Part shown: piece by piece, positions 1 through 41,351 of the stretch
How positions within the stretch are numbered: the stretch's first letter is position 1
Layout of the letters: every line of letters starts with the position of its first letter
Assembly (NCBI GenBank): GCA_002269645.1
Contig: NIVC01000550.1
Coordinates: 264,709-328,708, forward strand
Direction: 5' to 3'
Source: Macrostomum lignano
Lineage: Eukaryota
DNA: 64,000 bases
Translations under genes and position numbers: made by a program
Notes under the pieces: model-generated
The model's input: the letters and a program-made list of their open reading frames with translations, nothing else
Told to the model about the DNA's origin: nothing
Databases searched by the model: none

Positions 1-1043
1 GAGTCGCTAGTTTAGTTAGGCGCCGCACTAGTCAGCTGTTGCCCTCGCCTTCTCCCCAGGTTTTCTGTCTGCCGCTGGGCAGTTGCCTGTCCCTCCCGCC
101 TGTCCCTGGCCTGTCCTCTGCCCGTTTGTCTGTCTGTCTGTTTGTCCTCGTTTGCCCTTTTGTCTCGTTTTCCCTTTTTTGCAGTGCCCAGACAGCTTGG
201 TCTGGCCTGCCTCTGTTTCGTTCTCTGTCAGGCATCTCCAAATTTGGAGTGCCTTTCTGTTTTCCGGTCCCACGGTCACGAGTGCCTTCACTTGTGGGCC
301 TTTTCCCCTTGTCATGTGAGTCAGTCACATGACAAGGCCCTCTTCCTTCTTTAGTCCAAAGTGCAATGATTTCATCATTGTACGCTGGGCTCGTGTTTAT
401 GGGGAGATCACGTGCGCCCGGACCCCCCCTTTGCCTCCTCTGAGGCAGGGCCCGCTTGTTTGTTGCTAAAAATAGCAACAGAGTCACTTATGACTCTCAG
501 CGGGGGCCTTTCGTGCTATGGTGCAATCGATCCTCCCTATAAATGCGGCCCCTCTCATGGCTTGGCTCAGACAAGCGCTTTTCCTTGCGTTTCCTTTCGT
601 TCCTTCCGTTCCTACCGTTTCTAGCGTTTTCCGCGTCCCGTTTTCGTTTCTAGCGAACTCTAAGTTGTGTGCCAGTTTGCGCTTCAAGTGAACTCCAAGC
701 TCCCGACTTTGCGCGTGACTGCCTCTGATTGTTCCTGCTATCAGCTAGCAGGCCAGCTCGGATCGCCCGGCTAGCACTTTCGCTCTCGCCCCGCACAGCC
801 CGGCAGGGACTGCTGACGGGGGCACCTCTGCGCGAGAGCTGCTAAATCTGCACGGAGTGCGAGTCTCTTTCTCTCGTCTTAGTTATTTGCTTCTACGAGC
901 TCAGCACCTCACGAAGGCTGCGACTCTGCGAAGCTGGTGGCAGCACTACCGACGCTACTAGATCAACCTGGAGACTTCCCAGAGGAGCTCAAGGTGGGCA
1001 GCTCTCGCAACTGATTGGGAAGCAGCAAGACACCAGTACTTCA
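1..1043 (+). repeat. 5' LTR
   Basis: Matches 9004-10054; ends ...TACTTCA immediately before TTGGTG. Roughly ten substitutions and a similar number of 1-2 nt indels versus the 3' LTR (by eye). Confidence 0.95.
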
Positions 1044-1044
1044 T

Positions 1045-1068
1045 TGGTGACTCAGCGGTGGGATTCGA
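1045..1068 (+). promoter_or_regulatory. Primer-binding site, tRNA-Leu-like but imperfect
   Basis: TGGTGACTCAGCGGTGGGATTCGA 1 nt after the LTR; close to the complement of a tRNA-Leu 3' end (TGGTGGCAGCGGTGGGATTCGA) with ACT replacing G. Confidence 0.7.
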
Positions 1069-1150: not shown

Positions 1151-1208
1151 ACTACACCCAAGACAACCGCTCTTTCGAGTAAGAATTCGGCTATTCTACT
1201 AATTTGAA

Positions 1209-2376
1209 ATGTTTAACGAGAGAGAAGAGAGCCGGTGCAGCAGCCGGCTGGATCAGCACATCAGCAGTTCGAGACCTGCAGCAGCATCGGCTGCCGCAGC
1301 AGCAGCGGTCAACGACCTTGGTCAGCAGATGCCGCGGCGAAGTGCGAGAAGCGAAGTGTCCGAAGACCCGCCAGACGAGCTTCTGCCAGGTTTGGACGAC
1401 CTCGGCCAGAACATCAGGCCCCAGGATGTGAGAACGATGATGGCAGCTCTGCAGCAGCAGATGGAGCGGCCGGTAAGCAAATCTGTTAAGATTGTAAAGT
1501 ACACGCCCAGCCAGGACATCCACGTCTGGCTCGCCGCGTTCGAGCAGCGCTGCGAGATGGAGCGTATCGAAGACCCGATCGAGATGAAGCAGCACCTCGT
1601 TGCGAGTCTAGATCTGGCAACTGCTTACCCGGCTCTGCTCAGTATGCACCTCCCACGCTATGCTGGCTACGAGGAGGTCAGGCAGCGACTGATCGAGAGA
1701 TTCGCCCGCCACGGTGGCGCGGATGAATATCGAGAGCTGCTGAGGCGCCGTCAGCAAGGCAAGAATGAGTCAGCAGAAGAGTACGCTGATGCCCTGCGCA
1801 CCTTGGGAGAGCGAGCGTACCCTCGAATGCACCCTGAGGATCGAGAGCGGGAGCTGGCTGATCAGTTCCTAGCTGGCATCAGGACGACACCAGATCTGCG
1901 CGAGCGGCTCTATTGGGTCCGCCCGAACAATCTGCTGGCCGCTATTCGAGAACTCCATCGTCTGGAAGGCGCCAAGGAACTGGCGCAGCGCTCTGCTCAA
2001 CCCCGGTTCGCATGCTGAACGGGGAGCGCGACGGTGACCCGACGCCCGACGCCACCGCTCAAGCTCTCCTAGCTCTGACTGATCTGCTAGAGAAACAGCA
2101 GCGACTGCTAGACAACCTGGTGCAGCGTGACCAGCAGCAGAAACGAGTCCGCCGGCGAAAGCCATGATCTGCTATGGCTGTGGTCAGCCTGGTCATCGCA
2201 ATGCACAGTGCCCGTTACGCCAGAACCAGGGAAACGGCGAGACGGAGAGCGCCCACGGCAACGCCCTCCGCAGAGCCCAAGCCCCGGCTACTTGGCAGAC
2301 TCCGAACGCTCACCAGAAGAAGAGGATGTCGGCTGCACAGGCGCCAATGCCCAGCCCGACAATCGCTCATCAGTAA
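1209..2376 (+). CDS. gag: Gag (capsid-like domain plus CCHC zinc knuckle), interrupted by two apparent 1-nt deletions
   Basis: ORFs 1209-2018, 1913-2167 and 2164-2376 join up; retrotransposon-gag motif RRRQQGKNESAEEYADALRTL; knuckle CYGCGQPGHRNAQC. Confidence 0.9.
2229..2235 (+). other. Putative -1 programmed ribosomal frameshift site G_GGA_AAC (gag to pol)
   Basis: Canonical X_XXY_YYZ heptamer in the correct phase of the gag frame; the -1 frame is the protease ORF (2127-2771); CGGAG-AGCG...CGC-C-CTCCG stem starts about 6 nt downstream. Confidence 0.75.
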
Positions 2377-5300
2377 GTGAGGCTGAGTGCGGAGGTTTCG
2401 TGGACACCTCCGATGATCAAAAAATCCATGCGCGTGAGGCTGATCCGTACGTCACCGGCCGATTGGCGGGCCGAGAAGTCCCTTTCCTACTAGACAGCGG
2501 CAGTCGGAAAAACTTTCTTGGAGCGTCGACCTGGGCCAATGTTAGACGTCGGATGCCTCGTTGTATCATATCGCATGCTATCCCGGATTGCGTGACCATG
2601 TACGACGGTACGCAGCTACCCCTTGCGTGTAAGGTGATCATCCCGGTGGAGTTTGGTGATGTCGTCGCGGACACCGAATTCCTGGTCACGGTCACCGATT
2701 GTGAAAATTTGCTTGGTATTAATTTCATGCGTGAACACTGCCAAACTTGGACTTTGCGCAAGGAATGTTAAAGTTCAACAATGGCGCGTGCATTCCCGTT
2801 CGCTATTCGCGCCGTGAGCTTCAATCATGCCGGGTGTACACCTCCGAGAAGTGCACTCTGCCGCCGAGAAGCTCAGCGCTGTTGGCCGTCCAGTTGGATG
2901 TCGGCCACCCCGAGAACCGAGGATCGCCATCAATCGTCGAGCTGGTGAAGTCGAGACTGCACCCCAGCTGCAACACTCTGGAAGCAGCTCCAGCTCTGAT
3001 GACGATGCCTGAAGGTCGAGGCTACATCGAGGTCGTCAACACTGCTGACTGCGAGGTGTTCCTGCAGTCGGGCATCCGCGTTGGGTTGCGACACCACTTA
3101 GAACTGCCGACCTGATGTACCTGGAAGAGACGCCGGAACCTGAAGTGCGACATTTGCCAAGGAGCCCTGAAGAGTCCAGCACAGCTTGGCTAGAGGAAGT
3201 CGAGATCAACAGCGAGCTGTCCGAAGATCAACGACAGAGAGTGCGAGATCTACTAGTTGAGTGTCAAGCAGCCTTCTCGAAGCATCTGCTAGACGCTGGC
3301 CTGACACACTGGTGACCCACGAGATCATCCTGAAGGATCGGACACCAGTTGCGCTACCACCGCGCAGGATCCCGCCTCATCTGAAGGACAAGCTAGACGC
3401 CCTGCTAGACGAGATGCTGGCGAAGCACATCATTCGCCCGGCTTATTCTAGCTACAACTCGCCAATGCTGATAGTGCCCAAGAAGGACGGCAACATCAGG
3501 CTGGTGCATGACTTCAGAGCTCTCAACGACAAGTGTGTGTACCACCCGTACCCGCTGCCGCACATTCAGGAGACCTTCGCGAAGCTGCGTGGTGCCCAGT
3601 GGTACTCTAGCTTGGATCTCGCTCAAGGATTCTGGCAGATCCCGCTGCGCGACTGCGATCAGCACCTGACGGCGTTCTCTGTGATTGACCGCGGACAATT
3701 CTGTTTCAATGTTCTACCGATGGGTCTCCACGATAGTCCAGGCAGCTTTCAGCGTTGCATCAATAAGCTCCTGGACGGCCTGACGCCAAAGACTGCGCTT
3801 GGCTACATGGATGACATCGTGGTGCACTCTGTGACCTTCGAGGAGCAGCTGGACAACCTGCGGACTGTACTCCAGCGGATTATCGCAGCCAACCTCAAGG
3901 TCAAGCCGAAGAAGTGCCATTTGTTCCTCAAGGAGCTGCATTATCTAGGCCACGTCGTGACTCCCGACGGCCTGAAGACCTGTGAGGACAAGATTGCGCA
4001 GATCCGTGATTGGCCCGTGCCACAGTCCGTTACTCAACTGAGACAATTCCTAGGCCTCGCCAATTACTACCACAAGTTTGTCAACGGCTACGCTGGATTT
4101 GCTGCGCCGCTACATGCCCTGACTCGAAAGGACATCGGCAGCCTGCGGCAGCATTGGACTGATGAGCACCAGGTAGCGTTCGACACGTTGAAGAAGAAGT
4201 TGTGTTCGACTGAAGTTCTCGCTCTGCCTGAGTTTAACTCAGATCCTAATGTGAAGTTTGTCCTAGACACGGATGCCTCAGACATTCGCATAGGCGCTTG
4301 TCTTGGACAACGGCAATCCGACGGCGTCGAGCGCCCAATTGCATTCTTTAGCCGGAAGCTTCGTGATCCTGAGAAGCGCTACACGGTCACGAAGAAAGAG
4401 CTGCTTGCAATCGTGGACGCGATGCGACATTTCCGTCATTATTTAATCGGCAAGAAGTTTGAAGTTCGTTCTGACCATCGGGCCTTGCTGTGGCTGCTGA
4501 ACCAGACGCAGGTCACAGGCATCTTGGGCCGTTGGATTGAGCGATTAAGCGAGTTCCGCTTCCAGCTTCACCATCGCAAAGGCAAGGACCACGCCAACGC
4601 TGACGCCCTGTCAAGACGCCCGGAGACACCACCGGTTGACTTCGAGCACGGCCGACTGCTTGAGCACCCCGGTTCTGCAGCCCGACCCGGTGATGACACC
4701 AGCCTGGAGCCGGAATTGGACACCACACGTGAGGCCACTGCGAGAGCAGCCCGCACGAAGAAGGTCCACACTCGCAACAAGGAGGCCGAAACTGCCCTGG
4801 CCGAAGACCTGGAGGCCACTGCGCCAGCAGTCCTTCAGCACGACGACCATCGCTGCAGTCAACGCCTGGAGACCGGTTTGGACACCAACCCGGAGGCCAC
4901 TGACACCTCAGCCCTCCGCAGCGACGCCCACGCCGACTGCCGTTACTTGGAGATTCGCCCGGACAAACCTCGGAGGCCACTGCTGACGTAGACCTCCTTG
5001 ATGATGTCCAAGACTGCGGGTCTCGGAATCTGGAGACGCCCATGGACCACGACTCAGAGGCCACTGAACAAGCAGCCCTTCTGATGACAGCCCACAACGC
5101 GAATCCAGACCAGCAATGTAAGTTCAACTCCCCGGAGTTTTGCGCTGAGAGTTCTCGCCGTGTTGACAGAGGCCAGACTCTCGCGACGGCTGCAAGGTCA
5201 ACGCTCTGTCCCCCGAGCCGACAGACAGCTGCTCATCGCCTGTGCGGAAAGTCGAGTCCCCCTTTGCGACACCGCCCAGTGCTGGAGAAGACTCACCCAA

Positions 5301-8300
5301 TGACGACGATGATCGAGCCGACGGCTACGGCTGCCTGCGACGAGGCGTGCTTCACGTGTTGCGTCTCGCCCTACAGCCAAGAGTCGCCTGGGCTGTGCAG
5401 TGGAGGCAAGTGCACTGCTCCAGCTGCGGAAATTCCTGTCAAGAGAGCGACGATGAGAACTTCGAAACGAGATCAGCGATCGTACGCCGACGTTGTGAGA
5501 CAAAGTCCCTCGGAGCGACCTAATCCTGACGCCGACAAGACGGAGTCGTGTGATCAACTGCGAGCCACAGAAGCGGAGACTGAGGAAATCCGGAACCCTC
5601 AGCCATGCCGCGCAGTGCTCACTGATTTTATGAGGTTGCCGATGACGCGGCAACAGTTTGTCGACGCGCAGCGCGCCGACCGAGCAATCAGCTACGTGCT
5701 CAACTTGGTCGAGAACAAAGCCGCGAAGCCTGAGTTCGACGCCCGGTTGCGACTGACGAAGGAGCAGCGGAATCTGCTCGGATATTATGATAATCTGCGA
5801 GAGGACAACGGCCTGCTGATGATCGATCTGACTGATGGCCAGCAGCCCCGAAGGTTGTCCTGCCCGAAGCTCTAGATGCCCAGGTGCTCCAGGAGCTCCA
5901 CAGTTCGCCACTGTGTGGACACCTCGGCCAGACGAAGACATTGAAGCGGCTACGTGAACGATTCTGGAGGCCCGGATTAGCCCGTGTCACCGAGAACTTT
6001 ATCAGTAAGTGCCGCGCCTGTCTTGAAAGTAAATCCCGAAGACGAGACCGAGTACCTGTACAGAGCTTCCCTGTGTGCGAAGTCCTGGGAAGAGTACATT
6101 GCGATGTAGTAGGCCCTATCGCCCAGAAGAGCAAGAGCGGGAACTGCTACATCTTGACGCTATGCGACGCGACGTCGAAGTACCCGTTCGCCTATCCGAT
6201 GAGGAACCAGAAAGCCAAGACGGTCATCAAGATCCTGCAGGAGCGCTTGATCCCTGACTTTGGTGTACCATGCTGGATACACACTGATCAAGGAACCAAT
6301 TTCACTGGCTCAGCGTTCAAGAAGTTCTGTGACCTGTTTGGCATCCGGCATACGACGACAACACCGTACAACCCAGCTTCTAATGGGCAAGTCGAGAACC
6401 TCAACAAACAGCTGAAGAGTGTCCTCACCTGCCTCCTCGAGCGCAACCATAACGACTGGGACACCTTCCTCCCAGCCTGCTTGATGGCGCTCCGCTCTAG
6501 TGTACACCCGGTGACAGGTTTCACGCCTCACTACCTGGTGTTTGGTCGAGACTTTCGACTACCAATCGACAACGCGATCAAGAAGCTGCCGGAGTATGCC
6601 GATCTGCCTGACTATGTCAAGGACTTCCAGCGCCGCTTAGACGAAGCGACTGAGCTAGCTAAAGAACGCCTACATCTGCATCAGCAACTGCGCGACGAGC
6701 ACTATTCGAACCTGCCCGCTGCCAAGAAGCTCCAACCTGGTGACCTGGTTTTCCTCAACAACCCGGTGCTCGAACCGGATGAAGCGGCGAAGTTCCATCG
6801 ACCTCGCAAAGCGCTGTACGAGGTAGTCGAACCCAAGGGCGAGGTCGTCTACAAGATTCGCCGTAGAGTGCCAAACCCGCGGGCCAGGCGCGACGAGCTA
6901 GTAGTCCATCGCCGGAATCTGCTACTCGTCCCTGATGCCGACTACCAGCTGACTTCGGATCCAGAAGTCGACCAGGCCAAGAAGCGCTGCAGGTTGACTG
7001 ATGCCCCGGACGGTGCAGGACCCGCGACCCTGACACCGATCCCGGAGGACGATCCTGATGATGATGATGACGATGACGCATGGCCGGCCTTCCGGTGGCG
7101 CTTCCGGCCGTTGGCGATCCCGGATGTGCAGCCAGGAGGTGGACCGGTCACGACACCAGCGAACCAGGCAAGTGCATTTCGGCGTGAGCCACTGCCGTAT
7201 GGTGATCGCCATGATGGTGTGCCTGGTTTGAATGCGTCTGCACCTGCTGCTTCTTTTTCACCTGTCCATGCGTCCCCCCTTCCCGAACCTTTTTCGGCGG
7301 TGCAGTCTCCTGCGCCACCTCCTTGCACCACTCAGGTGGAAGCGTCTCCCATACCAGTAGTGGTAGGTAGGCCAGTTAGGGATCGGAGGCCGCCGGAGAG
7401 GCTTCTGATTAGCGATCCTAGGGCCAAAACGTACGTTAGTCGCACCGCCCGCATGCGTGTGCACAAATTAAAACCTTGCAGCGCAGAAATGCACAAGCGT
7501 CCGCTCCACGTGAGCTCAAGCTCCTCGTCCGATGCGGAGCAAGGGCGGCCTAGCCGTAGCCGGCGCCGACCTGGTACCCCGGTCTCGCCAGATACCATGG
7601 GGATCCCGCGGCGCCCGCTGGAGACAATTAACCGGAGACTCAGGGCTGAAGGCAACGGCTCGGCGAGGCCGACGCGCCAGGTTGATCGGCGCCCTCACCG
7701 TCGCACGCCGTCTCCCGAGCCCCAGAGGCGGAATGGGAGGCCACTCCGAACATCGGCACCCAGGCGAAGCCCTTCGCCCGTTCTGGAGAGCCATGCAGCT
7801 CAACACCCCGCTCGGGGTCAACGACACTCGCCCGAAGTCATCGACCTCACGCGCGACTCGCCATCGCCAGACGCGACTGCGCGGACACTCATGGTCGACC
7901 GGATCGCGGCCGCTTTGGCTTACGTGCAGCTGGAACAGCAGGTGATGCGGGGCTTGGCGGACATCCGCCTCCAAGTCCGCAATTCCCTTCCAGACATCGA
8001 CGGGGCTCGGCCGGCGGCCCGTGAGCGAGTCGGGTCGGAGCACCACGGCAGGCCCGGCGGAACAGATGAACGCGGAGGGGATCTCGACGACGCCAGGCAT
8101 CCCGACGCGGCCCCGTCTCCGATGTCTTGGACCGATGACACTCAGGGAGCGGCCGCATGCTCCTCAGCTGTTTGGACCGACCTGGCCGCGTCGCTGCGCC
8201 GCACCCTGCCCAGGGCCCCGCCACCATCGCCCGAACGTCCGGCGGAAACGCTCGATACCGGCACTCAAACGGAGTCGCCAATACCGGAATACCGAGCTAC

Positions 8301-8595
8301 CGTCATCGCTGCCGGCGCCCACCTGATAAGCGCTGTACTCGTCAGAGCGGCTCGGCAAGGCGGAGAAATCGTTGACCTCGGTGGCCCGATCTGGGCGGAG
8401 CTCCGTCAAACCACGGCCGAGGAGAGGAGCCGGTTATTCGCGGAGGCGGTCGGCCTGGCCGGCCCCGACCTGGAGCGGCCGAACCGGCCGTACGCTCTCC
8501 ACCTGGCGGCCGTCCGCGTTGCCCGATTCATGGGCGGCGGGGAAGAAGACCTGCCGATGCTCTTGATGACTCCGCGTCTGTGCTATTTTGACTGA
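2229..8595 (+). CDS. pol: Pol polyprotein (aspartic protease, RT, RNase H, repeat insert, integrase, long C-terminal tail), broken by single-base frameshifts
   Basis: FLLDSGS (PR); LVHDFRALN and YMDDIVV (RT); VLDTDASD (RH); HSSPLCGH...CRAC zinc finger and HCDVVGP/HTDQGTNF/NGQVENLN (IN core). ORFs 2127-2771, 2747-3115, 3115-3315, 3261-4991, 5042-5875, 5884-8595. Confidence 0.95.
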
Positions 8596-8985
8596 TTGGC
8601 GGCCGTACGCTGATGTACGCCCTGTTGACAATGAAGTTGCCCCGTTTGCCGCGCTAGTTAAGCGCCCTTATGCAGGAATTTTAAGCCGGTTGGCTTGTGT
8701 ATTCAGGTATCGCCCGCGCAATATTTAGGCGCCATTTCTAGGGTGGGCCGGCGCCCCCACACCAAATTCGAGCACTAATTTGGCGGGCTGGAGCACGAGG
8801 AATAGTTAGGCGCAGGCTATTAGCGGGTTGGCGCCCCCGCGGTATCAGGCCACTATCTTTACGACCTGGCCAGTCGCGCAATTTCACGAGCGCATTTGAA
8901 ATTTTGTGTGTTTTCTTTTGTCAGTAAATTCACGTTTACTTTGTTTTAAATAAAGCGCGCGCCGCTTCACTCCGCCTCTTTATTT

Positions 8986-8997
8986 GAACGGGGAGAG
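8986..8997 (+). promoter_or_regulatory. Polypurine tract
   Basis: GAACGGGGAGAG directly before the TGTAG start of the 3' LTR. Confidence 0.85.
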
Positions 8998-10054
8998 TGT
9001 AGTGAGTCGCTAGTTTAGTTAGGCGCCGCACTAGTCAGCTGTTGCCCTCGCCTTCTCCCCAGGTTTCTGTCTGCCGCTGGGCAGTTGCCTGTCCCTCCCG
9101 CCTGTCCCCTGGCCTGTCCTCTGCCCGTTTGTCTGTCTGTCTGTTTGTCCTCGTTTGCCCCTTTTGTCTCGTTTTCCCTTTTTGCAGTGCCCAGACAGCT
9201 TGGTCTGGCCTGCCTCTGTTTCGTTCCCTGTTTGGCATCTCCAAATTTGGAATGCCTTTCTGTTTTCCGGTCCCACGGTCACGAGTGCCTTCACTTGTGG
9301 GCCTTTTCCCCTTGTCATGTGAGTCAGTCACATGACAAGGCCCTCTTCCTTCTTTAGTCCAAAGTGCAATGATTTCATCATTGTACGCTGGGCTCGTGTT
9401 TATGGGGAGATCACGTGCGCCCGGACCCCCCCTTTGCCTCCTCTGAGGCAGGGCCCGCTTGTTTGTTGCTAAAAATAGCAACAGAGTCACTTATGACTCT
9501 CAGCGGGGGCCTTTCGTGCTATGGTGCAATCGATCCTCCCTATAAATGCGGCCCCTCTCATGGCTTGGCTCAGGCAAGCGCGTTTTCCTTGCGTTTCCTT
9601 TCGTTCCTTCCGTTCCTACCGTTTCTAGCGTTTTCCGCGTCCCGTTTTCGTTTCTAGCGAACTCTAAGTTTGTGTGCCCAGTTTGCGCTTCAAGTGAACT
9701 CCAAGCTCCCGACTTTGCGCGTGACTGCCTCTGATTGTTCCTGCTATCAGCTAGCAGGCCAGCTCGGACCGCCCGGGGCTGGCACTTTCGCTCTCGCCCC
9801 GCACTGGCCCGGCGGGGACTGCTGACGGGGGGCACCTCTGCGCGAGAGCTGCTAAATCTGCACGGAGTGCGAGTCTCTTTCTCTCGTCTTAGTTATTTGC
9901 TTCTACGAGCTCAGCACCTCACCGAAGGCTGCGACTCTGCGAAGCTGGTGGCAGCACTACCGACGCTACTAGATCAACCTGGAGACTTCCCAGGGGAGCT
10001 CAAGGTGGGCAGCTCTCGCAACTGATTGGGAAGCAGCAAGACACCAGTACTTCA
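8998..10054 (+). repeat. 3' LTR (1057 bp)
   Basis: TGTAGTGAGTCGC...CCAGTACTTCA, a direct repeat of the window start. Confidence 0.97.
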
Positions 10055-14351: not shown

Positions 14352-16057
14352 CTAGCTGTAGTATCTCACTCTAGGCTTGAAAGTCTCAGTGACATTAAAC
14401 AGCGGCTTCCGCCTCTTCCTCATGTGATCATAGCCCAGGTGCAGGAAGCGGTGCACAGCCACAGTGCTGTTGTCAGAGTCATCCATGCTCCAGTTCTTCC
14501 ACTTCAGCATGCGACAGCCGCGATCCAACCAGAGATGCTTCTTTCTCCCGAGCGGCTCTGCAAACAGGAGCGCAGGCTTCGTTTCATTTGTTATGCCCAG
14601 GCAATTCCAGCTATCCGCTCTCTGCAGACTGAATACCAAGTCGGAGACTCACTGGCTCCGTGGCAGACACTCGTCCAGTTGGTCTGCCAGTCCATCAGCG
14701 GGGAGGCCACGCTGGGTGGCAGCAGCCTCACCGGCCAGCTGCGGGCAGGCCGGCTATCTTTGTACTTCTTGTACACCTTCGTGAGAACCATCGGGCCAGT
14801 GGAGACGATAGATGTACCGGGCAGCCTCTTGGCGAGCACTTTGTGCATCATGGATCTGAAGAAGGGATGCCCCGGCACCGAGCCCATCAGGGAGTTCATG
14901 GCGCTGAAATTGGCGTCATGAATGATTCTGGTCAGCTCCAGCCGCTCCTGGTCGATGAAGGCCGCTTGCCGGGTGAGACTCGGCCCGAACGGCTTCACGC
15001 ATTCGACGTCCATGTCCAGGTAGATGCCTGCGGTTGAGGTAATGTGGGAAGCCACAGTTTATAGGAAAATGTGAGCGGATTCTGATGGAGACCTGGGAAG
15101 GATTCTGATGGAGATCTGGAAGGATTCTGATGGGGATCTGGTAGGAATCTGATGGGATCTGGGAGGATTCTGATGGGGATCTGGGATGATTCTGATGGGG
15201 ATCTGGGAGGATTCTGATGGGGATCTGGGGGGATTCTGATGGGGATCTGAGAGAATTCTGATGGGGATCTGGTGGATTCTGATGGAGATTTGGGAGGATT
15301 CTGATGGGGATCTGAGAGGATTCGTATGGGGATCTGGTGGATTCTGATACGGATCGGAGAGGATTCTGATGGGGATCTGGTGGATTCTGATACGGATCGG
15401 AGAGGATTCTGATGGAGATCTGGGAGGATTCTGATGGGGATCTGGGATGATTCTGATGGGGATCTGGGAGGATTCTGATGGGGATCTGGGAGGATTCTGA
15501 TGGGGATCTGAGAGAATTCTGATGGGGATCTGGTGGATTCTGATGGAGATTTGGGAGGATTCTGATGGGGATCTGAGAGGATTCGTATGGGGATATGGTG
15601 GATTCTGATGGGGATCTGAGAGGACTCTGATGGGTATCTGAGAGGATTCTGGTGGGGATTTGAGAGGATTCTGATGGGGATCTGGAGAATTCTGATGAAA
15701 ACCTGAGAAGATTCTGGTGGAGATCTCGGATGCAGCATATTTTGTAGCTCCATTAAAAGGTTAAAGTGCCGCACCTCCAAACCGGTGCAGGATGACGTAT
15801 CGAATGGCATCGGAGTGCTGCAGGTTGTATTTAAAGCTCAGGTAAGTCTTCAAGTATTGAGGATATTTCTTGGAGATGAGAGCCCTGGCATCGGAGTCCC
15901 GCCACAGGTAGTAAGTCCAGTTGGGGTTAAGCTTCAGACAGCTGCTGATCATTGGCCGGTAGTTCTCGTAGACCATCTCGGAGGCGAAGGTTTGATGCAG
16001 AATTTGAGGGATCTCGAATGCAGCTGGGGGATTTTCTTGCCTCTGGTTGGCAGCCTC
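14352..16057 (-). CDS. GT32 / DXD-motif glycosyltransferase (OCH1/SUR1-like); exons 16057-15775, 15027-14653, 14557-14352; 5' exon(s) unresolved
   Basis: [31 protein letters not shown]|[35 protein letters not shown]; phase-compatible GT-AG introns 15774-15028 and 14652-14558. Confidence 0.88.
15077..15727. repeat. 22-bp minisatellite (~30 units) filling a glycosyltransferase intron
   Basis: Unit GGATTCTGATGGGGATCTGGGA with variants; period 22 measured at 15189/15211/15233. Confidence 0.95.
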
Positions 16058-28320: not shown

Positions 28321-28522
28321 GATTTGCAGATTTATTATTTATGTAACAACACAAATGCCTTGACTCGAAAGGTTTTTCAACTGCAAACAATAACGGGATG
28401 TGATTTGAGAAAATGCCATGATTAAACAATCAAAGGGGCTGCTACTTGGCATAGTGATTGTTGGGGCCCCAACTGGCTTCTGCTGTATCAAAATTACTGA
28501 AATCAGCAGTCAGCTGGGAGAC

Positions 28523-28700
28523 AGACACGGTACCGCTTGTACAAGACACGGTACCGCTTGTACAAGACATGGTACCGCCTGTACAAGACATGGTACCGCC
28601 TGTACAAGACACGGTATCGCTTGTACAAGACACGGTACCGCCTGTACAAGACACGGTACCGCTTGTACAAGACACGGTACCGCTTGTACAAGACACGATA
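28523..28700. repeat. 21-bp minisatellite (~8.5 units) just downstream of the EXOSC8 stop
   Basis: Unit AGACACGGTACCGCTTGTACA; period 21. Confidence 0.95.
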
Positions 28701-28777
28701 CCTTTAGTGGTCAAGTATTCAGAGCGTGTCAGGCATTGCTAAGCAGAGTCAGTCAAACGCGCATAGGAATCGGCCAG

Positions 28778-31747
28778 TCACCGAGCCAGCGGCCCTGCCA
28801 AGCAGGCCGCGTGCCTCTCAACGGCTTCCCGGCAGCAGCGGCCGACCAGCTCGCTGGCCGCTTCGCCCACCATCTGGACGCTGACAACGCGAACCGGCAA
28901 GTCGCCACCGCCGGCAGTAAAAACTCGGACAATGGCGGCGCCAGGCAGCGCCTCCTCCCGGCCGTCCGGCACCGACAACAGCTGATCGTTGTCAATGGCA
29001 ACAAAGCTGGTACAAATGACGGCGCTTCCAGGGCGCAGCACGGCCGGGCGGAATTGCTCGCCGCTGGGGCAGCGCCTCACACCGACGTCAGCTGCTGCTG
29101 TTGAACGAACCGAAGGTCCGGAGTTCGAGTCATCGTGACCGGCATCGGCGGGGACTACGAGGCGCGGCAGGCAAAGGTTGGCCAGGGCGGCGCTGACGGC
29201 CAGGAGGCAGGCGTCTGGCAGGGAGCCGTCGGCGCTGAGGCAGACGGCGTCAACGTGCAGCTGCAGGCGGTGCCGCGGTCCCACGGTCAGCTGGGCGGCG
29301 TCCAGACAACCGGACTGGGCAAGAGCGTCTGACACCTGCAGGAAAGGAATTACAAATAATATAATTGCACTGTATTGTACGTATAACTGGGAATCATAAG
29401 TGCAACTTTGATCGATTTGTTTGTTTGATTTTCAATTACAGGGTACGGTGCGCTGCCGCAAAGCAGTCAGTCATGCCATTGCGCTGCCCCATAAGCACTT
29501 GAGGTACTTTGGCGCCAGAATCGATCGCGTTACCGCTGAACTGCTCAGCCTTAGCATGAATCGCGGATGTCTAATCTGCTATTCGGAAGTCAAAACGGAA
29601 GCACGATGGGTTGTTTTCCCAAGTTCAAAACTTCACACTGTCTAAGGCAACAGCACACTTCACCAGCTCAGACAACAACAACAAAATACGCGACCCTGCA
29701 AGCAGAGGTCACAGTTAAAGCAGGGGGCGTCAGATGGCGCGCCGCAGAGCCTGGGAGCGAACAAAGTCCGCTCCGTTGGCAGTGTCGAGCGCCCCAGCGC
29801 CGCACAGCAGGCAGTCCACGTATCGACGGGTCGGGCCTGACCCCGCCTGAACGGACCCTGCAAGGTGAGCAGCAGGACGTCCTGAACAGGTTGGGGGCAG
29901 TAGCCCTCGGCCCGGATCACGTGGCCCGCCAGTTGAAGTCGCCGCCGGCGCAGGATGGTGGACGGGCGCTGCAGCTTGGCCCGATCGTACAGGGCCTCGG
30001 TCCCGACGCTCTCGTCAGCTCGAAAGGCTGCACGGAGCAGCGCTGAATGCGCCGAGTCCAGTTGCCGCTCTAGCGTAGCCGTCAGCGTCCACGTCTCGTC
30101 CACGGACGGTTTCGACCACAGCCGAGCCCTTTGGCGGTCGGGCAGTGCTTCGGACTGGAGGACGACTCGGATCGAACAAAAGGCCGCCCAGGCAAGTCCT
30201 CTGCGCCGCCGGAGGTCCTCTTCCACGTGGGGCACCAGACCGCCGAGGTAGGTGAACCGCTGGCAGCGTGCGAGCCTGGTCGTCTGCCCGTCTGCGCCGC
30301 GGCACGTCAGGTCCGATGGGATGTCGGCCGGCACAGTCAGCACCTCGGTCTTCAGCGTGTTGACAATCAGACCAACGCTGCGATGCCACCTCGACCAGCC
30401 TGTCAATCTGGTACTGGGCGCCTAAAACGGACGAGGACAGGAGGGCGAGGTCGTCGGCGTAGCCAAGCACGCTTAGGCGCTTTTCGCCGTGGCGGCGACC
30501 GATGCGTCTGCGCAGCAGGAAGCGGTCATTAGCAGAGGGGAGTGCGGTCCGAAGCACCCAGTCTAGCAGCAGCACTAAGAGGAACGGCGCTAGCGTGTCG
30601 CCCTGCAGAACTCCTGATGAAGTATCGAACAGGTCAGACAGGCCGTCCGCCGTCACCACAGCAGCTCGAGTATCGCGATACAGCGACATGATACTTGTAG
30701 CGTCGATTAGCTGCTGCGGGACTCGGTAGGCTCGAAGGACGAAGGGGAGCGCGGCTCTCAGCACCGAGTCAAACGTCTTTCAAAAGTCAACAAAGACAAT
30801 GATCAGCGTAGACTGGCGGATGCGCGTCTCCTCGATGACCCGGCAGAGTGCGAGGATCTGTGTCACTGTACCGCGTTGCGGCCGGAATCCATTCTGCTCG
30901 TACCGCAGGTACGGGTCTAGCATCGACTGCAGACGATCGAGCAGCAGCCGGTTGAAGAGCTTCGCGGTGCAGGACATCAGCGAGATCCCGCGGTGGTCTT
31001 CTTTCCGCGTTGTCCCTGCCTTCTTCGGTATCGGCACGATGTGCGCGACGGTAAACTCGGTGGGCGCAGGAGCGCCATCGAGCACGCGGTTCATGACGCC
31101 TGTGACCTGGGAGGCCACACAGCAGAGCCGCAACGCTTCGACCGGGACTTCGTCGGGGCTGAGCGCCTTGTCACCTGATGATTGCCGAGCAAACAGCACA
31201 ACAGAACTTCACCAGCTCAGAACCTTACATCACAAGCTCTTAATGCCCCATCGGAAAAATATTAGCGCTCTTATCTGTTTCGAGCCTGTAAAATATTCGC
31301 TCCGGCCCAGCCGCAGCCAGAATGCCTTCAGAACACAGAAAACAGCTCAAAGCTAGAAATTCGCACCTGAACGGTGAGCGCCTGCGCCAAGTCGCTGGGC
31401 GGCCCGGGCCGGAACGCTCTCGAACAGACGGGCGGCAGGTCGGCATTTAACACGACGCCCGCCGCCAGCAGCGGATGGCAGCCCGCGGCGGCGGCGGCGG
31501 CTCCGGCAGCCGAGAGCTCCACAACGCTGGCCGACACTCCGCAGGCGAATTTCGTGTTGCCGAGCACCGAAATCGCGCTGCCAGCCGCGCCGCCCAGGCA
31601 ACCGGGGGTCACGTGACCGACACGGCTGGACGGAGAGGCCGCGGTGGCTGCCAGCCGCAGCCTGTTGGCCAGCAGCGCCTTGGCAAACTCGGCGGGGGCG
31701 GCCAGATTCCAGTCTGCCGCATCGTCAGTCAGCATCGGCTGCGACAT
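28778..31747 (-). CDS. EXOSC8: Exosome complex component RRP43 (RNase PH fold); exons 31747-31367 and 29335-28778
   Basis: GSAISVLGNTKFACGV and NADLPPVCSRAFRPGPPSDLAQ match the EXOSC8 N-half; LHVDAVCLSADGSLPDACLLAVSAALANLCLP matches the C-half; phase-0 GT-AG intron 31366-29336. Confidence 0.88.
29672..31200 (-). mobile_element. Degraded 5'-truncated RTE-like LINE in the EXOSC8 intron (same family as 38730-41351)
   Basis: QNGFRPQRGT, IIVFVDF, GVLQGDTLAPFL and LGYADDL across frameshifts; (TTG)n tail at 29672-29684 on the minus strand. Confidence 0.92.
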
Positions 31748-31857
31748 GCCGGGTTTGGAAGCTGGAATGCATCCAGATGGAGCTTTGAGCCGCTAAGGTT
31801 GTCTGAGAACTTTCGAACCTCGCACTGTCGTTAAAAGAATTTGACACAAAACTCAAT

Positions 31858-32140
31858 AGATTAGAAAATCGCCCCATACCGATTAAAAAATCGCCCCATT
31901 GCGATTAAAAATCGCCCCATAGCGATTAGAAAATCGCCCCTACCGATTAGAAAATCGCCCCTACCGATTAGAAAATCGCCTCATACCGATTAGAAAATCG
32001 CCTCATACCGATTAGGAAATCGCCCCATGCCGATTAGAAAATCGCCTTATAGCGATTAGAAAATCGCCTTATAGCGATTAGAAAATCGCCCCATACCGAT
32101 TAGAAAATCGCCCCATACCGATTAGAAAATCGCCCCGTAG
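31858..32140. repeat. 22-bp minisatellite (~13 units) with internal palindrome, upstream of EXOSC8
   Basis: Unit CGATTAGAAAATCGCCCCATAC; CGATT/AATCG inverted within each unit. Confidence 0.95.
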
Positions 32141-32621
32141 CGACAAAGAAGTTACTAGAATAATTTAGAATGCAAAGACTTAGCGAAATGGAATGAAACT
32201 CAGTGAATAAAAAAATTGGTGAATATATAGGTAAATATAATATATTTATAAAATGAGCATATAATTAAATAAAAATATAGTGAGACACTGCAAAACCGCA
32301 GACACACAGGGCTCTCACAGCACGCATGTACAGTATGTATGCAGCAGAATGGAATGATTTCACAATGCAAAATTATCAATAGCAAAACAGGTCAAGAAGC
32401 CGCAGGACAAACCAGATTAAAATACAGTAGCACAATTTCAAAAAAGATTTTGTTAAAACTGGCATGAAAAATTGTCATGCTTGAGACTCCTCTCAGCCAA
32501 ATAAAAATTATTGGAAGGATTTGAAGGTAAATTCTTGATAAAATAACTAATACGCAGAGTCTGCAATAAAACATTAGCAGCGCACTGGAAGCCCGAAACC
32601 AGATGAAATTTGCCATCCCGT

Positions 32622-33407
32622 GCAGAAAAGTCAGCAGTCGGTCACTCAGACAGCAGCAGACGGTCACTCAGACAGTCAGCAGTCGGTCACTCAGACAGCA
32701 GCAGACGGTCACTCAGACAGTCAGCAGTCGGTCACTCAGACAGTCAGCAGTCGGTCACTCAGTCAGCAGTCGGTAACTCAAACAGTCAGCAGTCGGTCAC
32801 TCGGGCAGCAGCAGTCGGTCACTCAGACAGTCAGCAGTCGGTCACTCGGGCAGCAGCATTCGGTCACTCAGACAGTCAGCAGTCGGTAACTCAGACAGTC
32901 AGCAGTCGGTAACTCAGACAGTCAGCAGTCGGTCAATCAGACAGTCAGCAGTCGGTCACTCAGTCAGCAGTCGGTCACTCAGTCAGCAGTCGGTCACTCA
33001 AACAGTCAGCAGTCGGTCACTCAGACAGTCAGCAGTCGGTCACTCAGACAGTCAGCAGTCGGTCACTCAGACAGTCAGCAGTCGGTCACTCAAACAGTCA
33101 GCAGTCGGTCACTCGGGCAGCAGCAGTCGGTAACTCAGACAGTCAGCAGTCGGTCACTCGGGCAGCAGCAGTCGGTCACTCAGACAGTCAGCAGTCGGTA
33201 ACTCAGACAGTCAGCAGTCGGTAACTCAGACAGTCAGCAGTCGGTCACTCAGACAGTCAGCAGTCGGTCACTCGGGCAGCAGCAGTCGGTCACTCAGACA
33301 GTCAGCAGTCGGTAACTCAGACAGTCAGCAGTTTGGTCACTCAGACAGTCAGCAGTCGGTCACTCAGACAGTCAGCAGTCGGTCACTCGGGCAGCAGCAT
33401 TCGGTCA
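32622..33407. repeat. 23-bp minisatellite (~35 units with variants) overlapping the Clock stop codon
   Basis: Unit CAGTCAGCAGTCGGTCACTCAGA; variant CTCGGGCAGCAGCA(G/T)TCGGTCA. Confidence 0.95.
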
Positions 33408-38729: not shown

Positions 38730-41351
38730 CAGGTCGGAATGCTCGCCTGTTCTGCGCGTACGCGCCCCCTGCCACACGCCCTGACGAGGCTCAAGAGTTT
38801 TTCGAGCAGCTCTCAGTGCAGGTAGAGGCGACGGCGCAGCGTGACACAGCGGTCGCCCTCGGAGACCTGAACGCAGTCCTGCGTAGGTCCGAGAGGTCGC
38901 TGTTCGTGACGCCACGCGGGAACAACAACACCGAGGCACTGGAGGACTTCCTGGAGAGGCAGGACATGGTGTCGGCCAACACCCGCTTCCGCAAGCCACT
39001 GAGCGGTCTCGCAACCTTCGTGGGCTGCAAGCGGAGGCGACGGAACGCGCGTGGCAGGAACGCAACCCGGAGACAAGCACAGCTCGACCACGTGCTCGTG
39101 CGTTTCCGTGAGCGTCGTCGCGCCGTCAACTGCCGCACCATCACGCCGCTGGCTCTGCGGTCCGATCACCGGCTCCTCATCTGCGACCTCAACCTTCGCG
39201 ATCCGCTCTACCGTCCGCCGAAGCGGCCACCGCGGCGCTACTACGCGCGCTCAGAGCCACCGATACGCAGCGTCGCTTTGCTAGCGCCTTTAACACCGCG
39301 CTGGGCGACAAGCGTGGAAGTGCGGAGTATGCGGAAGTGTGCGCTGCAGTCAGAACCGCCGCGGAGCAAGCAGTCCCGATGATGCAGCCGGCTCAACGTG
39401 GGCAGCCGGTCTGGCAGGACGACCCCGCGATTCAGGCAGCGAGGGAAGATCTGGAGAAGCTCCGCTTGAGCAGGCGACCAACCCGCGAGGCAGAGGCAGC
39501 TCTGGCAGCTGTCTACCTGCAGCGCCAACAAGCGGCTGTCGATGACGCCATTCAGGCTGTCTCTGCCGCTGGGCCCGATGCCAGAGGGCGCGTGGCCTGG
39601 TCCGCCATCAACGCTCTGACGGGACGAAAGCGGCGCAATCCGCTGAACCTGGCTGGTGACACGCCGGACGAGCGTAGGAACGAGCTGCGCGAGTTCTTCG
39701 CCGCCATCGTCAACGCGCCGCCACCCCCGCTGCCAGACAGTCTGACGCTGCCGCCGGAGACGCCGCTGCCGGCAGAGGAGAGTTTCAGCGTAGCCCCAGT
39801 CAACGCAGCCGACGTTGTCAAGCTCGCCCAGCAGTCACCGGGCGGGAAAGCGCTGGGTCCGGACGAGGTGCCCATCGAGGCGCTGCGCATCCCCTGTGTG
39901 GCCGCTGAGGTCGCCAGAGTGATGAACCGCGTGCTCTTCGGTGAGGCGGCGCCCAACGAATGGACCACGGCGCACATCGTCGCTGTTCCAAAGAAGCCGG
40001 GCACCACTAGGCTTGAAGACCATCGAGGCATCTGCCTTCAGTCCTGTGCAGCGAAGCTGTTCAACCGGATGCTGCTTTCGCGGTTGCAGCCCGTGCTGGA
40101 TCCGTACCTGCGCCCAGAGCAGAACGGGTTCCGGCCCCATCGCGGCACAGTGGCGCAGATCCTGGCTCTTCGCCGAGTCATCGAGGAGGCGCGGATTCGT
40201 CAGTCGATACTGATTTTAATCTTTATTGATTTCAAGAAGGCATTCGACTCGGTTGTCAGAGCCGTGCTTCCAATGGTGCTCCGCGCGTACAACGTGCCTG
40301 AGCAGCTGATCTCCGCCGTCATGGCGATGTACCGTGATACGACAGCTGCTGTGACAACACCGGACGGCCTATCGGACTCCTTTGAGACATCCTCCGGAGT
40401 GCTTCAGGGAGATACGCTGGCGCCGTTTCTGTTCGTCCTGGTGCTTGACTGGGTGCTGCGGACTGCTCTTCCTACCGACGACGACGGTTTTCTGCTGCAG
40501 CGACGCGTGGGTCGACGTCAACCGGAGAAGCGGCTCAGCGTGCTTGGCTACGCCGACGACCTCGCCCTGCTGTCCTCGACCGTCGAGGGCGCCCAACGGC
40601 AGCTGGACAGGCTGGTTGCCGTTGCGGCGAGTGTCGGCCTGGTGGTCAACACGCAGAAGACCGTTGTGCTCTGCGTGCCGGACGACATCGAGGCTGCAAT
40701 ATTTTGCCGAGGCGCTGACGGGCAGGCGACCGAACTCCCGCGATGTCAGCAGTTCGTCTACCTCGGCGGTCTGGTTCCAGACGCTCGCGAGGACCTGCGA
40801 CGCCGCCGCGGGCTTGCCTGGGCTGCCTTTCGTTCTGTGAGGGCAGTCCTGCAGTCCGAGGCCCTACCGGACCGCCAGAGGGCGGCGCTGTTCCAGGCGG
40901 TAATCGAGACCGTCCTGCTGTACAACGCCGAGACCTGGACGCTGACGGACTCACTCGAACAGCAAGTCGATGCGGCGCACGCTGGTCTGCTGCGCGCCGC
41001 CTTCAACATCGGCGTCGAGCGAGTCACCAACGCGGCACTCTATCGCCGCGCTGGCCTGCCACGTCCAAGTGATCTACTGCGCCGTCGGCGACTCCAGCTC
41101 GCAGGCCATCTCATCCGCGCCGAGTCGTACTGCCCACAGCCGGTGCAGGAGGTGCTGCTGCTCACGCTGCAGGCACCCTACCGGCGAGGTCAAGCGCGAA
41201 CTCGGCGTTATGTCGACTGTCTGCTGGCTGACGCCGGCGCCCCGGACACTGCCGGTGGCGCGGCCTTTGTTTGCGCCCAAGCCATGAAGCGCGCCCTGTG
41301 ACGCTGACTTTTACCATCATGACAGCGTATTTTGTTGTTGTTGTTGTTGTT
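38730..41351 (+). mobile_element. 5'-truncated RTE-like non-LTR retrotransposon (partial AP endonuclease plus RT)
   Basis: ALGDLNA, QLDHVLV and RSDHRLL (EN; one frameshift near 39250); ORF 39337-41301 with QNGFRPHRGT, FIDFKKAFDSV, GVLQGDTLAPFLF, YADDLALL; (TTG)n tail; TSD ACACTATA at 38722-38729 and 41352-41359. Confidence 0.95.

Follow-up and report, generated by a model that had tools for sequence, protein, structure and literature searches.

ORF3, the third gene of an LTR retrotransposon in the flatworm Macrostomum lignano, very probably has dual expression, i.e., as an extension of Pol and from an mRNA of its own that is capped with the spliced leader of the host. The product of this accessory gene may be a nuclear regulator of the unspliced genomic RNA, an assignment made tentatively and by analogy. 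All coordinates refer to the window, i.e., the entire analyzed stretch of 64,000 nucleotides.

The host element of ORF3 is a young Ty3/gypsy LTR retrotransposon. As far as they lie in the window, both LTRs are bounded by TG...CA, a primer site and a polypurine tract are present, and the gene order protease–RT–RNase H–integrase is that of Ty3/gypsy (Pfam). The alignment of the two LTRs contains 10 mismatches and 12 gap columns over 1053 columns. The following features form the backbone:
1–1043, plus strand: 5' LTR, starting a few bases outside the window and ending in CA
1045–1062, plus strand: primer-binding-site-like stretch, beginning with TGG directly behind the LTR
1203–4556, plus strand: gag, protease, RT and RNase H (ORF list), the frame being interrupted at several points in the window copy
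5899–6924, plus strand: integrase with HHCC zinc finger, DDE core and C-terminal domain (Integrase_H2C2 and rve above the Pfam cut-off; motifs)
6925–7488, plus strand: integrase linker of 188 codons, acidic and Pro-rich, also lying upstream of the ORF3 acceptor
7489–8595, plus strand: ORF3 (368 aa) from Met 7489 to the stop at 8595, in the Pol frame and the first long ORF on the leader-capped mRNA
8990–8997, plus strand: polypurine tract (sequence), kept across alleles
8998–10054, plus strand: 3' LTR (TG...CA)
Within 1203–4556, RVT_1 and RT_RNaseH exceed the Pfam cut-off and Asp_protease_2 falls below it; gag is labelled by position alone. Clades recorded in the Macrostomum host are Mag, CsRN1, Gmr1/Osvaldo and Mdg3/Micropia (PMC12801592, accessible part); the 120 Pol relatives listed here include no named reference elements. 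The GC content of the DNA is 62–64 %.

Integrase and ORF3 are spanned by a single open frame (5836–8595, 919 aa), and the remaining five frames contain 5–26 stops across the tail. Located in this frame are VHRRNLL (6904–6924) and RPVRDRRPPERL (7369–7404); 556 codons follow VHRRNLL and 386 follow the Tyr behind the RPVR motif, the latter in agreement with the ~385 codons that a preliminary description of this DNA had given for the frame beyond the usual integrase end. The tail module of ~550 aa proposed there has to be shortened: the 556 codons exist, but the module comprises 368 aa, since 6925–7488 represents a Pol-like integrase linker, the synonymous divergence of which tracks that of integrase rather than ORF3. 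Likewise, the proposed fusion to integrase holds with respect to the reading frame, but the same stretch is in addition expressed separately, as a gene that possesses an acceptor, a start codon and a putative poly(A) signal of its own and that is exchanged as a cassette. The integrase core was matched in 106 of the 120 Pol relatives and its end was reached in 49, where the tail behind integrase has a median length of 84 aa and attains at least 300 aa in a single case. No Pfam match was obtained for the tail of the window copy. The fusion to Pol has stayed in frame in many copies: of 65 fusion-frame sites (redundant loci included), 39 are open, 24 frameshifted and 2 interrupted by a stop. The fusion frame is retained in three clades and the acceptor–7 nt–ATG spacing in all alleles examined, both also in a lineage with ~54 % Pol identity.

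Separate expression of ORF3 is indicated by the following features:
7105–7224, plus strand: block conserved at the nucleotide level (codon scan), containing a GC-type 5' splice donor at 7167/7168
7168–7481, plus strand: GC-AG intron, its 314 nt not divisible by three, precisely absent from genomic copies L013, L080 and L109
7476–7481, plus strand: 3' splice acceptor TTGCAG, with the leader joined at 7481/7482 in contigs of runs X9, X11 and X3
8949–8954, plus strand: AATAAA, putative poly(A)-type signal, the sole AATAAA in the element and upstream of the polypurine tract
In three of seven runs, these three belonging to two studies (X9 and X11 of study P4, X3 of study P3; three of four within one subset of runs), the spliced leader of Macrostomum is attached 7 nt before Met 7489, and contigs of the other four (X1, X2, X6, X16) cross position 7481 unbroken; these data consist of assembled contigs, their RNA nature being guessed and no listed run being on record as RNA. 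Loose letters at the junction are identical to the 3' terminus of the 35-nt leader as published, and the acceptor fits the YTNCAG motif described together with the leader (PMC8629364). The genome contains 74 matches to the leader, followed by a GTAAG donor in five of six of one sample and in none of six of another, and the last 12 leader letters are absent from the 178 element-derived loci examined. With an acceptor of this type and a leader encoded elsewhere, the ORF3 mRNA is a spliced-leader trans-spliced transcript. Use of the acceptor at 7481 is also evident because genomic copies, found in two distant clades, lack exactly the GC-AG intron ending there. AATAAA occupies the same place in all 11 alleles in which the polypurine tract was found (13 examined). 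The terminal AUG of the leader is out of frame with ORF3 (8–68 codons) in all 14 alleles checked; therefore, ribosomes would start at Met 7489.

Of the 30 degenerate codons in the conserved block, 27 are invariant, compared with 140 of the 310 in integrase (p 1.3e-6 by Fisher's test, the block being picked after the scan). Since it lacks unusual folding (z -0.6) and a double change occurred in 1 of 42 pairs, conserved RNA structure in 7085–7245 is unsupported, and the data do not establish a response element. A joint between LTR and acceptor does not occur in the four runs examined, and cis-splicing of this kind was therefore rejected. A joint of 7163 to 7990 in run X1 corresponds to genomic deletion copy L014 rather than to an intron, and allele branching accounts for the contigs that end near 8973, which are thus no evidence of cleavage.

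The alleles of ORF3 mostly share 24–50 % identity with each other and are exchanged between backbones that are 94–98 % identical, with a sharp cassette edge 36–131 nt behind the ATG. Co-variation of ORF3 with the LTR was rejected, since copies whose ORF3 DNA is unrelated have LTRs that are 94–96 % identical. Purifying selection acts on ORF3, with dN/dS below 1 in each computable pair (coarse method) and 0.06–0.69 for the C-terminal domain where computable (e.g., dN 0.11 and dS 1.65 for L066/L069). Against this divergent background, several features of the protein recur:
7489–7790, plus strand: basic Arg/Ser/Pro-rich N-terminal region; in 16 of 16 alleles, 19–26 of the first 100 residues are Arg or Lys
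7837–7851, plus strand: VIDLT, candidate SIMb (PIAS-type SUMO-interaction motif), followed by acidic and Ser-Pro residues
7939–7977, plus strand: motif of an amphipathic helix in one or two copies, matched in 11 of 16 alleles (pattern composed after the alignment was seen)
8173–8232, plus strand: short W-x2-L helix with PPx[ST]P behind it, the latter in 16 of 16 alleles with P244, P245 and P248 invariant
8251–8274, plus strand: LDTGTQTE, candidate LC8-type motif (TQT at 8263–8271, Asp at -4, Glu at +2)
8284–8592, plus strand: helical C-terminal domain of ~100 aa without known relative (AlphaFold2 model)

The Arg/Ser/Pro-rich segment described earlier contains RRTPSP (7699–7716) and RRSPSP (7762–7779). 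Conservation of the two binding-type motifs across relatives, suggested as a check in the preliminary description, was found far above shuffles in 13 alleles that are less than 75 % identical, related and distributed over about three main clades; the looser patterns [VILFYC]IDLT and [TICV]QT were composed after the alignment was seen. The SIM-like PEVIDLTRD, assigned with reference to the SIM core of PIAS1 (PMC3901395), has [VILFYC]IDLT counterparts in 10 of these alleles (~0.0 expected from shuffles), and IDLT is missing in L062, L072, L088 and the L147–L160 lineage. In case of the LC8-like motif, TQT occurs in 7 of the 13 (0.72 expected) and proline-free [TICV]QT in 12 (0.85 expected), the position of the anchor shifting between clades with up to three copies. 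LDTGTQTE of the window conforms to all listed preferences of LC8 ligands (PMC6607443): TQT is not preceded by proline, position -4 is Asp, and position +2 holds one of the favoured residues Asp, Glu or Pro. An ELM-style pattern with K/R at -3 matched none of the 13 alleles. Canonical LC8 (DYNLL) genes are present in the host. Judged from these motifs, ORF3 probably binds SUMO and LC8. Inspected by eye, most alleles show no obvious canonical export signal.

The helical end domain, earlier predicted at about 110 aa, was modelled with five helices (AlphaFold2, mean pLDDT 86). The proposed fold search yielded no clear match: Foldseek against PDB and viral models returned nothing at E <= 0.001, and the best VIA-align result, with a Z of 5.6 and an rmsd of 4.5 across 89 residues, lies in the range of unrelated helical bundles. 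Among 1.84 billion representatives, a profile search found four matches (three of the own family and an unrelated repeat protein). Of the PDB sequence searches, one found nothing and the other a designed protein at E 0.44, and a word-indexed search for longer relatives yielded one protein among 7995 candidates scored, which is weak evidence of absence. Cullin-repeat rows from the fold search were not adopted, nor was an HD-domain lead from the Atlas (score <=0.85, recognition below threshold). Homology with the corresponding ORF3 domain in lineage P0007 is not claimed, since hhalign gave a probability of 0.1 % and the profile scores fell within the range of shuffles. The fold search with that domain reached a best Z of 7.9; the helix spacing in its model equals that of the window domain.

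In errantiviruses of insects, env is the third ORF behind pol and is expressed from a subgenomic RNA spliced in cis from an LTR donor. ORF3 shares the position behind pol and the subgenomic spliced RNA, but is trans-spliced and lacks a signal peptide or conserved transmembrane segment. A hydropathy scan of 16 alleles revealed neither signal peptide nor transmembrane anchor, the N-terminus being devoid of hydrophobic stretches; the best 19-residue value (1.69 in the window allele, 0.75–1.3 in most others) coincides with the first helix of the C-terminal domain. Chromoviruses carry a chromodomain as targeting module at the integrase C-terminus, in frame as is ORF3. In contrast to this module, ORF3 is separately expressed and ends in an all-helical orphan domain, with no chromodomain match (Pfam) in the tail or in 16 alleles. 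The earlier view that the tail is neither env nor a chromodomain thus agrees with both analyses.

The closest precedent for ORF3 is CERV of the Caenorhabditis elegans element Cer1. According to the accessible parts of two reports, the 2.4-kb mRNA of Cer1 is spliced and can carry SL1, the 8-kb RNA does not (PMC3315495), and CERV is required for genomic-RNA export (PMC10309623), the text of the latter never mentioning SUMO. As far as these sources go, CERV and ORF3 are both non-env accessory ORFs that take the place of env in a gypsy element, with a spliced mRNA that may carry the host leader and a genomic RNA that skips the site; the spliced subgenomic RNA typical of CERV/Rev-type proteins corresponds to the leader-capped ORF3 mRNA. 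A nuclear regulator is shown for CERV and may be assumed for ORF3. The mRNAs differ in that CERV is cis-spliced from gag-shared exons and a 3' exon, whereas the ORF3 leader is placed directly on an acceptor ~7.5 kb inside the element, without gag exon and resembling that of a downstream operon gene. Unlike CERV, ORF3 is in frame with Pol and occurs as alleles that are exchanged; in place of the Cys loop of CERV, it has motifs of the SIM and LC8 types. The profile search revealed no likeness to CERV or Rev, and no clear match emerged from the fold searches. LTR elements of bdelloid rotifers also carry non-env ORF3s as lineage-specific cargo in this slot; those described in the accessible text of PMC5408684 are captured enzymes (GDSL esterase, DEDDy exonuclease), differing from the disordered motif scaffold with orphan helical domain of the flatworm.

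An accessory host-interaction factor, as proposed in the preliminary description, is the best reading in view of motifs conserved on a divergent background, the kept frame and the absence of env or chromodomain features. A regulator of genomic RNA is ranked slightly above transport, targeting to SUMO-rich chromatin and anti-silencing; a specific function in helping the accumulation and export of this RNA is held tentatively. AATAAA at 8949 would end the ORF3 mRNA before the polypurine tract, and therefore it could not be retro-copied. With donor, acceptor and poly(A) signal inside the element, genomic RNA would therefore have to skip all three. LC8 may dimerise the free protein, which could be recruited via its SIM to SUMO-marked sites in the nucleus and bind nascent element RNA via the Arg-rich region, thereby favouring full-length RNA as CERV does for Cer1, and the Pol-fused form would bring the module into the particle. 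Counting against the regulator, an action on RNA of a near-invariant backbone alone leaves the retention of old, very different alleles unexplained, the open in-frame fusion fits a role on Pol, and the leader form, absent from four of seven runs, is not found everywhere.

In a somewhat unlikely alternative, ORF3 would act as anti-silencing factor, i.e., as SUMO/LC8-binding decoy or competitor of host silencing complexes, with alleles kept by host conflict. Deeply diverged alleles are indeed swapped between near-identical backbones, a separate mRNA permits expression apart from Gag-Pol, and both motif types recall piRNA-guided silencing in Drosophila, in which a complex dimerised by LC8 takes part as well as a SUMO ligase with effectors that contain SIMs (PMC8490990, accessible part). 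However, dN/dS values below 1 reveal no positive selection by the coarse method, and the lack of LTR co-variation is unlike a sequence-specific anti-silencer. One may speculate further, with less probability, that the element is a two-gene operon, from which trans-splicing by the host excises ORF3 as the downstream gene, and ORF3 a counter-defence scaffold mimicking SUMO/LC8 silencing complexes, its alleles forming an ancient, swapped library under balancing selection; such an operon would be the animal LTR-element counterpart of phage anti-defence cassettes.

It is quite unlikely that the Pol-fused form is the working form, as a C-terminal tether taking the integration complex via dynein (LC8) into the nucleus and onto SUMO-rich chromatin, with the leader mRNA secondary. 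The conserved fusion frame, the position at the site of chromodomains and other targeting modules, and unspliced RNA over the acceptor in all seven runs (RNA nature guessed) are consistent with such a tether, but an mRNA that is a mere by-product leaves the constant acceptor spacing, the sharp cassette edge and the conserved AATAAA unexplained, and in a sister lineage Pol ends in a stop with a separate ORF3 behind a like acceptor. A functionless open frame in GC-rich DNA, with chance motifs and splicing noise, is very improbable. Although stop codons are thinned at this GC content, chance can produce short motifs and numerous peptides with TQT fail to bind LC8 (PMC6607443), such a frame is refuted in the main by leader junctions in two studies, purifying selection with near-saturated synonymous sites and motif retention, the confident fold adding to this.

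ORF3 thus represents a third gene of an LTR retrotransposon that is expressed without an LTR-derived donor, by direct leader trans-splicing at an internal acceptor, and is at the same time readable as Pol extension. This predicts the expression mode of other ORF3s in trans-splicing hosts, including the sister lineage in the Macrostomum genome with its acceptor of like type. Few examples exist of counter-silencing or Rev-like proteins of animal retrotransposons, and the cassette provides a natural experiment in which alleles on near-identical backbones share only short host-binding-type motifs and one fold. Roles of ORF3 are testable in the host, because transgenesis is published for its genus (PMC5730564, accessible part). 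Literature searches retrieved no description of ORF3 or its trans-splicing; earlier classification work and preprint supplements may bear on novelty. Within the parts accessible, element splicing and extra ORFs are unmentioned in the text and supplements of PMC12801592 and the main texts of PMC8775202 and PMC13524379 (word search), and ORF3 or its trans-splicing is not described in PMC9911081 and PMC4558846. Several public "hypothetical proteins" can be reassigned to a transposon: PAA48053.1, PAA89952.1 and PAA74962.1 of M. lignano, annotated as hypothetical host proteins with no link to retrotransposons, are alleles of ORF3. They are stand-alone gene models of 366–416 aa, two of the three beginning at the Met that corresponds to 7489.

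The window starts within a Ty3/gypsy LTR retrotransposon with reverse transcriptase (RT), RNase H and integrase in gypsy order, and includes the following features:

1-1043 and 8998-10054: LTRs (10 mismatches and 12 gap columns in 1053)
5836-8595: single open frame
7489-8595: ORF3, the last 368 codons of this frame
7837-7851: VIDLT, putative SUMO-interaction motif (SIM)
8263-8271: TQT, putative LC8 anchor

All motifs and coordinates reported for the integrase tail in the preliminary description proved correct upon rechecking of the sequence, and its distinction of the tail from env stands, as neither a signal-like N-terminus nor a conserved transmembrane stretch is present. A Pfam search of the tail yielded no match. 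The tail comprises 556 aa, compared to a median of 84 aa in the 49 of 120 listed Pol relatives that allowed measurement. When the same genome was searched at the DNA level, 123 candidates were scored and 40 of them gave 42 matches, 14 of these near-identical; the final 121 residues, used as a protein query, gave 73 matches (identity down to ~32 %), many of which end open frames of 1200-2215 codons. Twenty of the protein matches were retrieved for their long frames and diversity, together with 40 further sites out of the 67 matches of a motif scan. All retrieved loci taken together, some representing the same place twice, contain 80 motif sites, 65 of them with an integrase end upstream. Stops in most copies, considered earlier as an argument against a functional tail, were not found: the frame continues from integrase into the tail at 39 of these 65 sites, is shifted at 24 and is interrupted by a stop at 2. 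Therefore, the integrase-ORF3 fusion is the normal state of the family rather than an oddity of the window copy.

Contigs of the sequencing runs align gap-free to the window over 7481-8990. Several gag-pol frameshifts are present in the window copy (1203-5880); since the contigs show small gaps there, these may partly be assembly errors. Intact polyproteins contain an unannotated spacer of ~430 aa between RNase H and integrase, much longer than usual (window ~4560-5860; residues 795-1230 in copy L061). At the 3' end of the LTR (position 993 of the window, likewise in many loci), two versions exist among copies whose interiors are near-identical. Four near-identical copies (L005, L006, L007, L009) share an ORF3 frameshift leaving 151 codons.

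Conservation of both short motifs was examined in 13 ORF3 alleles (versions in individual copies) less than 75 % and mostly 24-50 % identical. VIDLT, the core of the PIAS1 SIM (PMC3901395), is retained as hydrophobic residue plus IDLT in 10 of 13 alleles, and a proline-free [TICV]QT in 12 of 13 (strict TQT in 7). Relative to a PPx[ST]P element, the LC8-type anchor lies downstream in one clade and upstream in the remaining ones, and two or three anchors occur in certain alleles; this shifting position and multiplicity point to selection on the motif, not on an alignment column. The window TQT, which has Asp in position -4 and Glu in position +2, is a candidate LC8 ligand; these residues are favoured in LC8 ligands, though many peptides with TQT fail to bind (PMC6607443). 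In copy L088, which lacks IDLT, both the W-x2-L helix and the LC8-type motif are present in duplicate. The first 100 residues are basic in 16 of 16 alleles. The last 100 form a predicted compact helical bundle (pLDDT 86) without relatives outside Macrostomum lignano among 1.84 billion representatives searched, and the fold search proposed in the preliminary description, performed with the model of this domain, gave no match.

Alleles are near-identical up to the Met at 7489 and diverge sharply beyond it. The invariant DNA ahead of this Met consists of a pyrimidine-rich stretch ending in CAG, followed by 7 nt and ATG, a fixed arrangement suggesting a splice acceptor. In assembled contigs of coded sequencing runs, taken as RNA by guess, 11-17 foreign letters are joined at 7481 (X9 and X11 of study P4, X3 of study P3), i.e., in three of seven different runs. 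They correspond to the 3' end of the M. lignano spliced leader, which is 35 nt long and used with the acceptor motif YTNCAG (PMC8629364). The X9 contig also breaks at 7481 in a second comparison, and no variant among the examined copies accounts for this break. Contigs of X1, X2 and X6 cross 7481 without a break, as does that of X16, which showed no foreign letters there among the matches listed. The leader was found in none of 178 element loci examined; spliced-leader genes with a GTAAG donor are present in the same genome (5 of 6 places retrieved from arrays or clusters). At several other genomic places (L081-L086, L194) the leader is followed by non-donor sequence, as expected of retro-copied trans-spliced mRNAs. 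Read from the leader's terminal AUG, all 14 alleles examined reach a stop after 8-68 codons; read from Met 7489, 11 of the 14 stay open for 350-470 codons.

In three genomic copies (L013, L080, L109), precisely the sequence between a GC donor (7168) and this acceptor is missing; retro-copying of cis-spliced RNA is the best explanation for them. Since L080 and L109 are 99 % alike, at least two intron-loss events in different clades are represented. The intron measures 314 nt in the window clade and 311 nt in another, so its removal uncouples ORF3 from Pol. The donor-containing block has 30 degenerate codons, 27 of them without variation, versus 140 of 310 in integrase; a conserved RNA structure was looked for in this block and not supported. 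One acceptor serves three RNA fates: unspliced, cis-spliced and leader-spliced. The only AATAAA of the element, 34-36 nt upstream of the polypurine-tract motif in all 11 alleles with a tract found (13 examined), presumably functions as poly(A) signal. Among public gene models, three that correspond to related alleles represent stand-alone proteins (366-416 aa).

Substitution rates, counted by the Nei-Gojobori method for 13 pairs drawn from 10 elements (some pairs being saturated), differ strongly along the element: window and L076 show a dS of 0.02 in integrase versus 1.23 in the C-terminal domain, and L066 and L069 0.02 versus 1.65 (dN 0.11). In 7 of 11 within-lineage pairs, read as having such a break, 94-98 % DNA identity over ~7 kb ends 36-131 nt past the ATG and returns just before the polypurine tract; the remaining four (three among L066, L067 and L069; L063/L076) can be aligned across the greater part of ORF3, with lower identity overall. 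Integrase and ORF3 trees agree in three main clades and conflict inside them (AU test, p 6e-12 and 2e-5, with groups named after the trees were seen). Together, dS contrast, sharp identity breaks and tree conflict indicate that ORF3 alleles, old and under purifying selection, have moved between closely related backbones; template switching is the probable route. The LTR goes with the backbone, not with ORF3.

Whether ORF3 is separate elsewhere, as asked in the preliminary description, has a divided answer. It remains fused in frame with integrase in a lineage with ~54 % Pol identity (L145, L147-L160), whose helical domain is homologous (E 1.8e-7 in a profile comparison of few ORFs) and which shares the CAG, 7 nt, ATG spacing, carries a VDTN[VI]Q motif and lacks IDLT. 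It is separate in the sister gypsy lineage P0007 (L133-L143, L166-L190; 58 % RT identity), where Pol stops first and an ORF3 of 236-284 aa lies directly behind a YTNCAG acceptor. In many P0007 alleles, acidic residues follow a SIM-like motif (LIIDL or LVVDIDL), and mixing of alleles can be seen in this lineage; sequence comparison did not link the P0007 domain to that of the window family. A further gypsy lineage (L144:2528-3517, minus strand) has a separate Gln-rich ORF3 of 330 aa without Pfam match.

Splice sites and a probable poly(A) signal within genomic RNA would create the problem solved by Rev and by CERV, the accessory protein of Caenorhabditis elegans Cer1: genomic RNA would have to escape donor, acceptor and probably the poly(A) signal. 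Spliced Cer1 mRNA can carry SL1, which the 8-kb RNA lacks (PMC3315495), and the product of the spliced mRNA is required for genomic RNA export (PMC10309623). Given this escape problem and the Cer1 precedent, a nuclear RNA regulator is ranked first for the ORF3 product, as a tentative choice that is possible rather than probable. An anti-silencing factor, ranked second and rather unlikely, would better account for the allele library, and the pair of SIM and LC8 motif mirrors a Drosophila silencing scaffold (PMC8490990); however, the parallel presupposes flatworm equivalents of this scaffold, and no positive selection was detected by the above counting in the 13 pairs. Ranked third, and quite unlikely, ORF3 would act as a tether on integrase. 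The nuclear RNA regulator is compatible with both other roles, and these with each other.

Spliced accessory ORFs and SL-bearing retrotransposon mRNA are already known (Cer1, PMC3315495; ORF3s of rotifers, PMC5408684). The literature search (one earlier classification paper being outside its scope) yielded no description of ORF3, of its exchange between copies or of a leader spliced directly onto an internal acceptor downstream of pol, and none turned up in PMC12801592 and its supplements. That ORF3 constitutes an operon-like counter-defence cassette appears unlikely.

Elsewhere in the window, ORFs resembling non-LTR-type reverse transcriptases were recognized by eye (29660-31200 and 39112-41301), long inverted pairs are formed by 30118-31202 with 39814-40891, and tandem minisatellites (repeat unit 21-23 nt) occur at 15069-15727, 28502-28732, 31833-32181 and 32554-33360.
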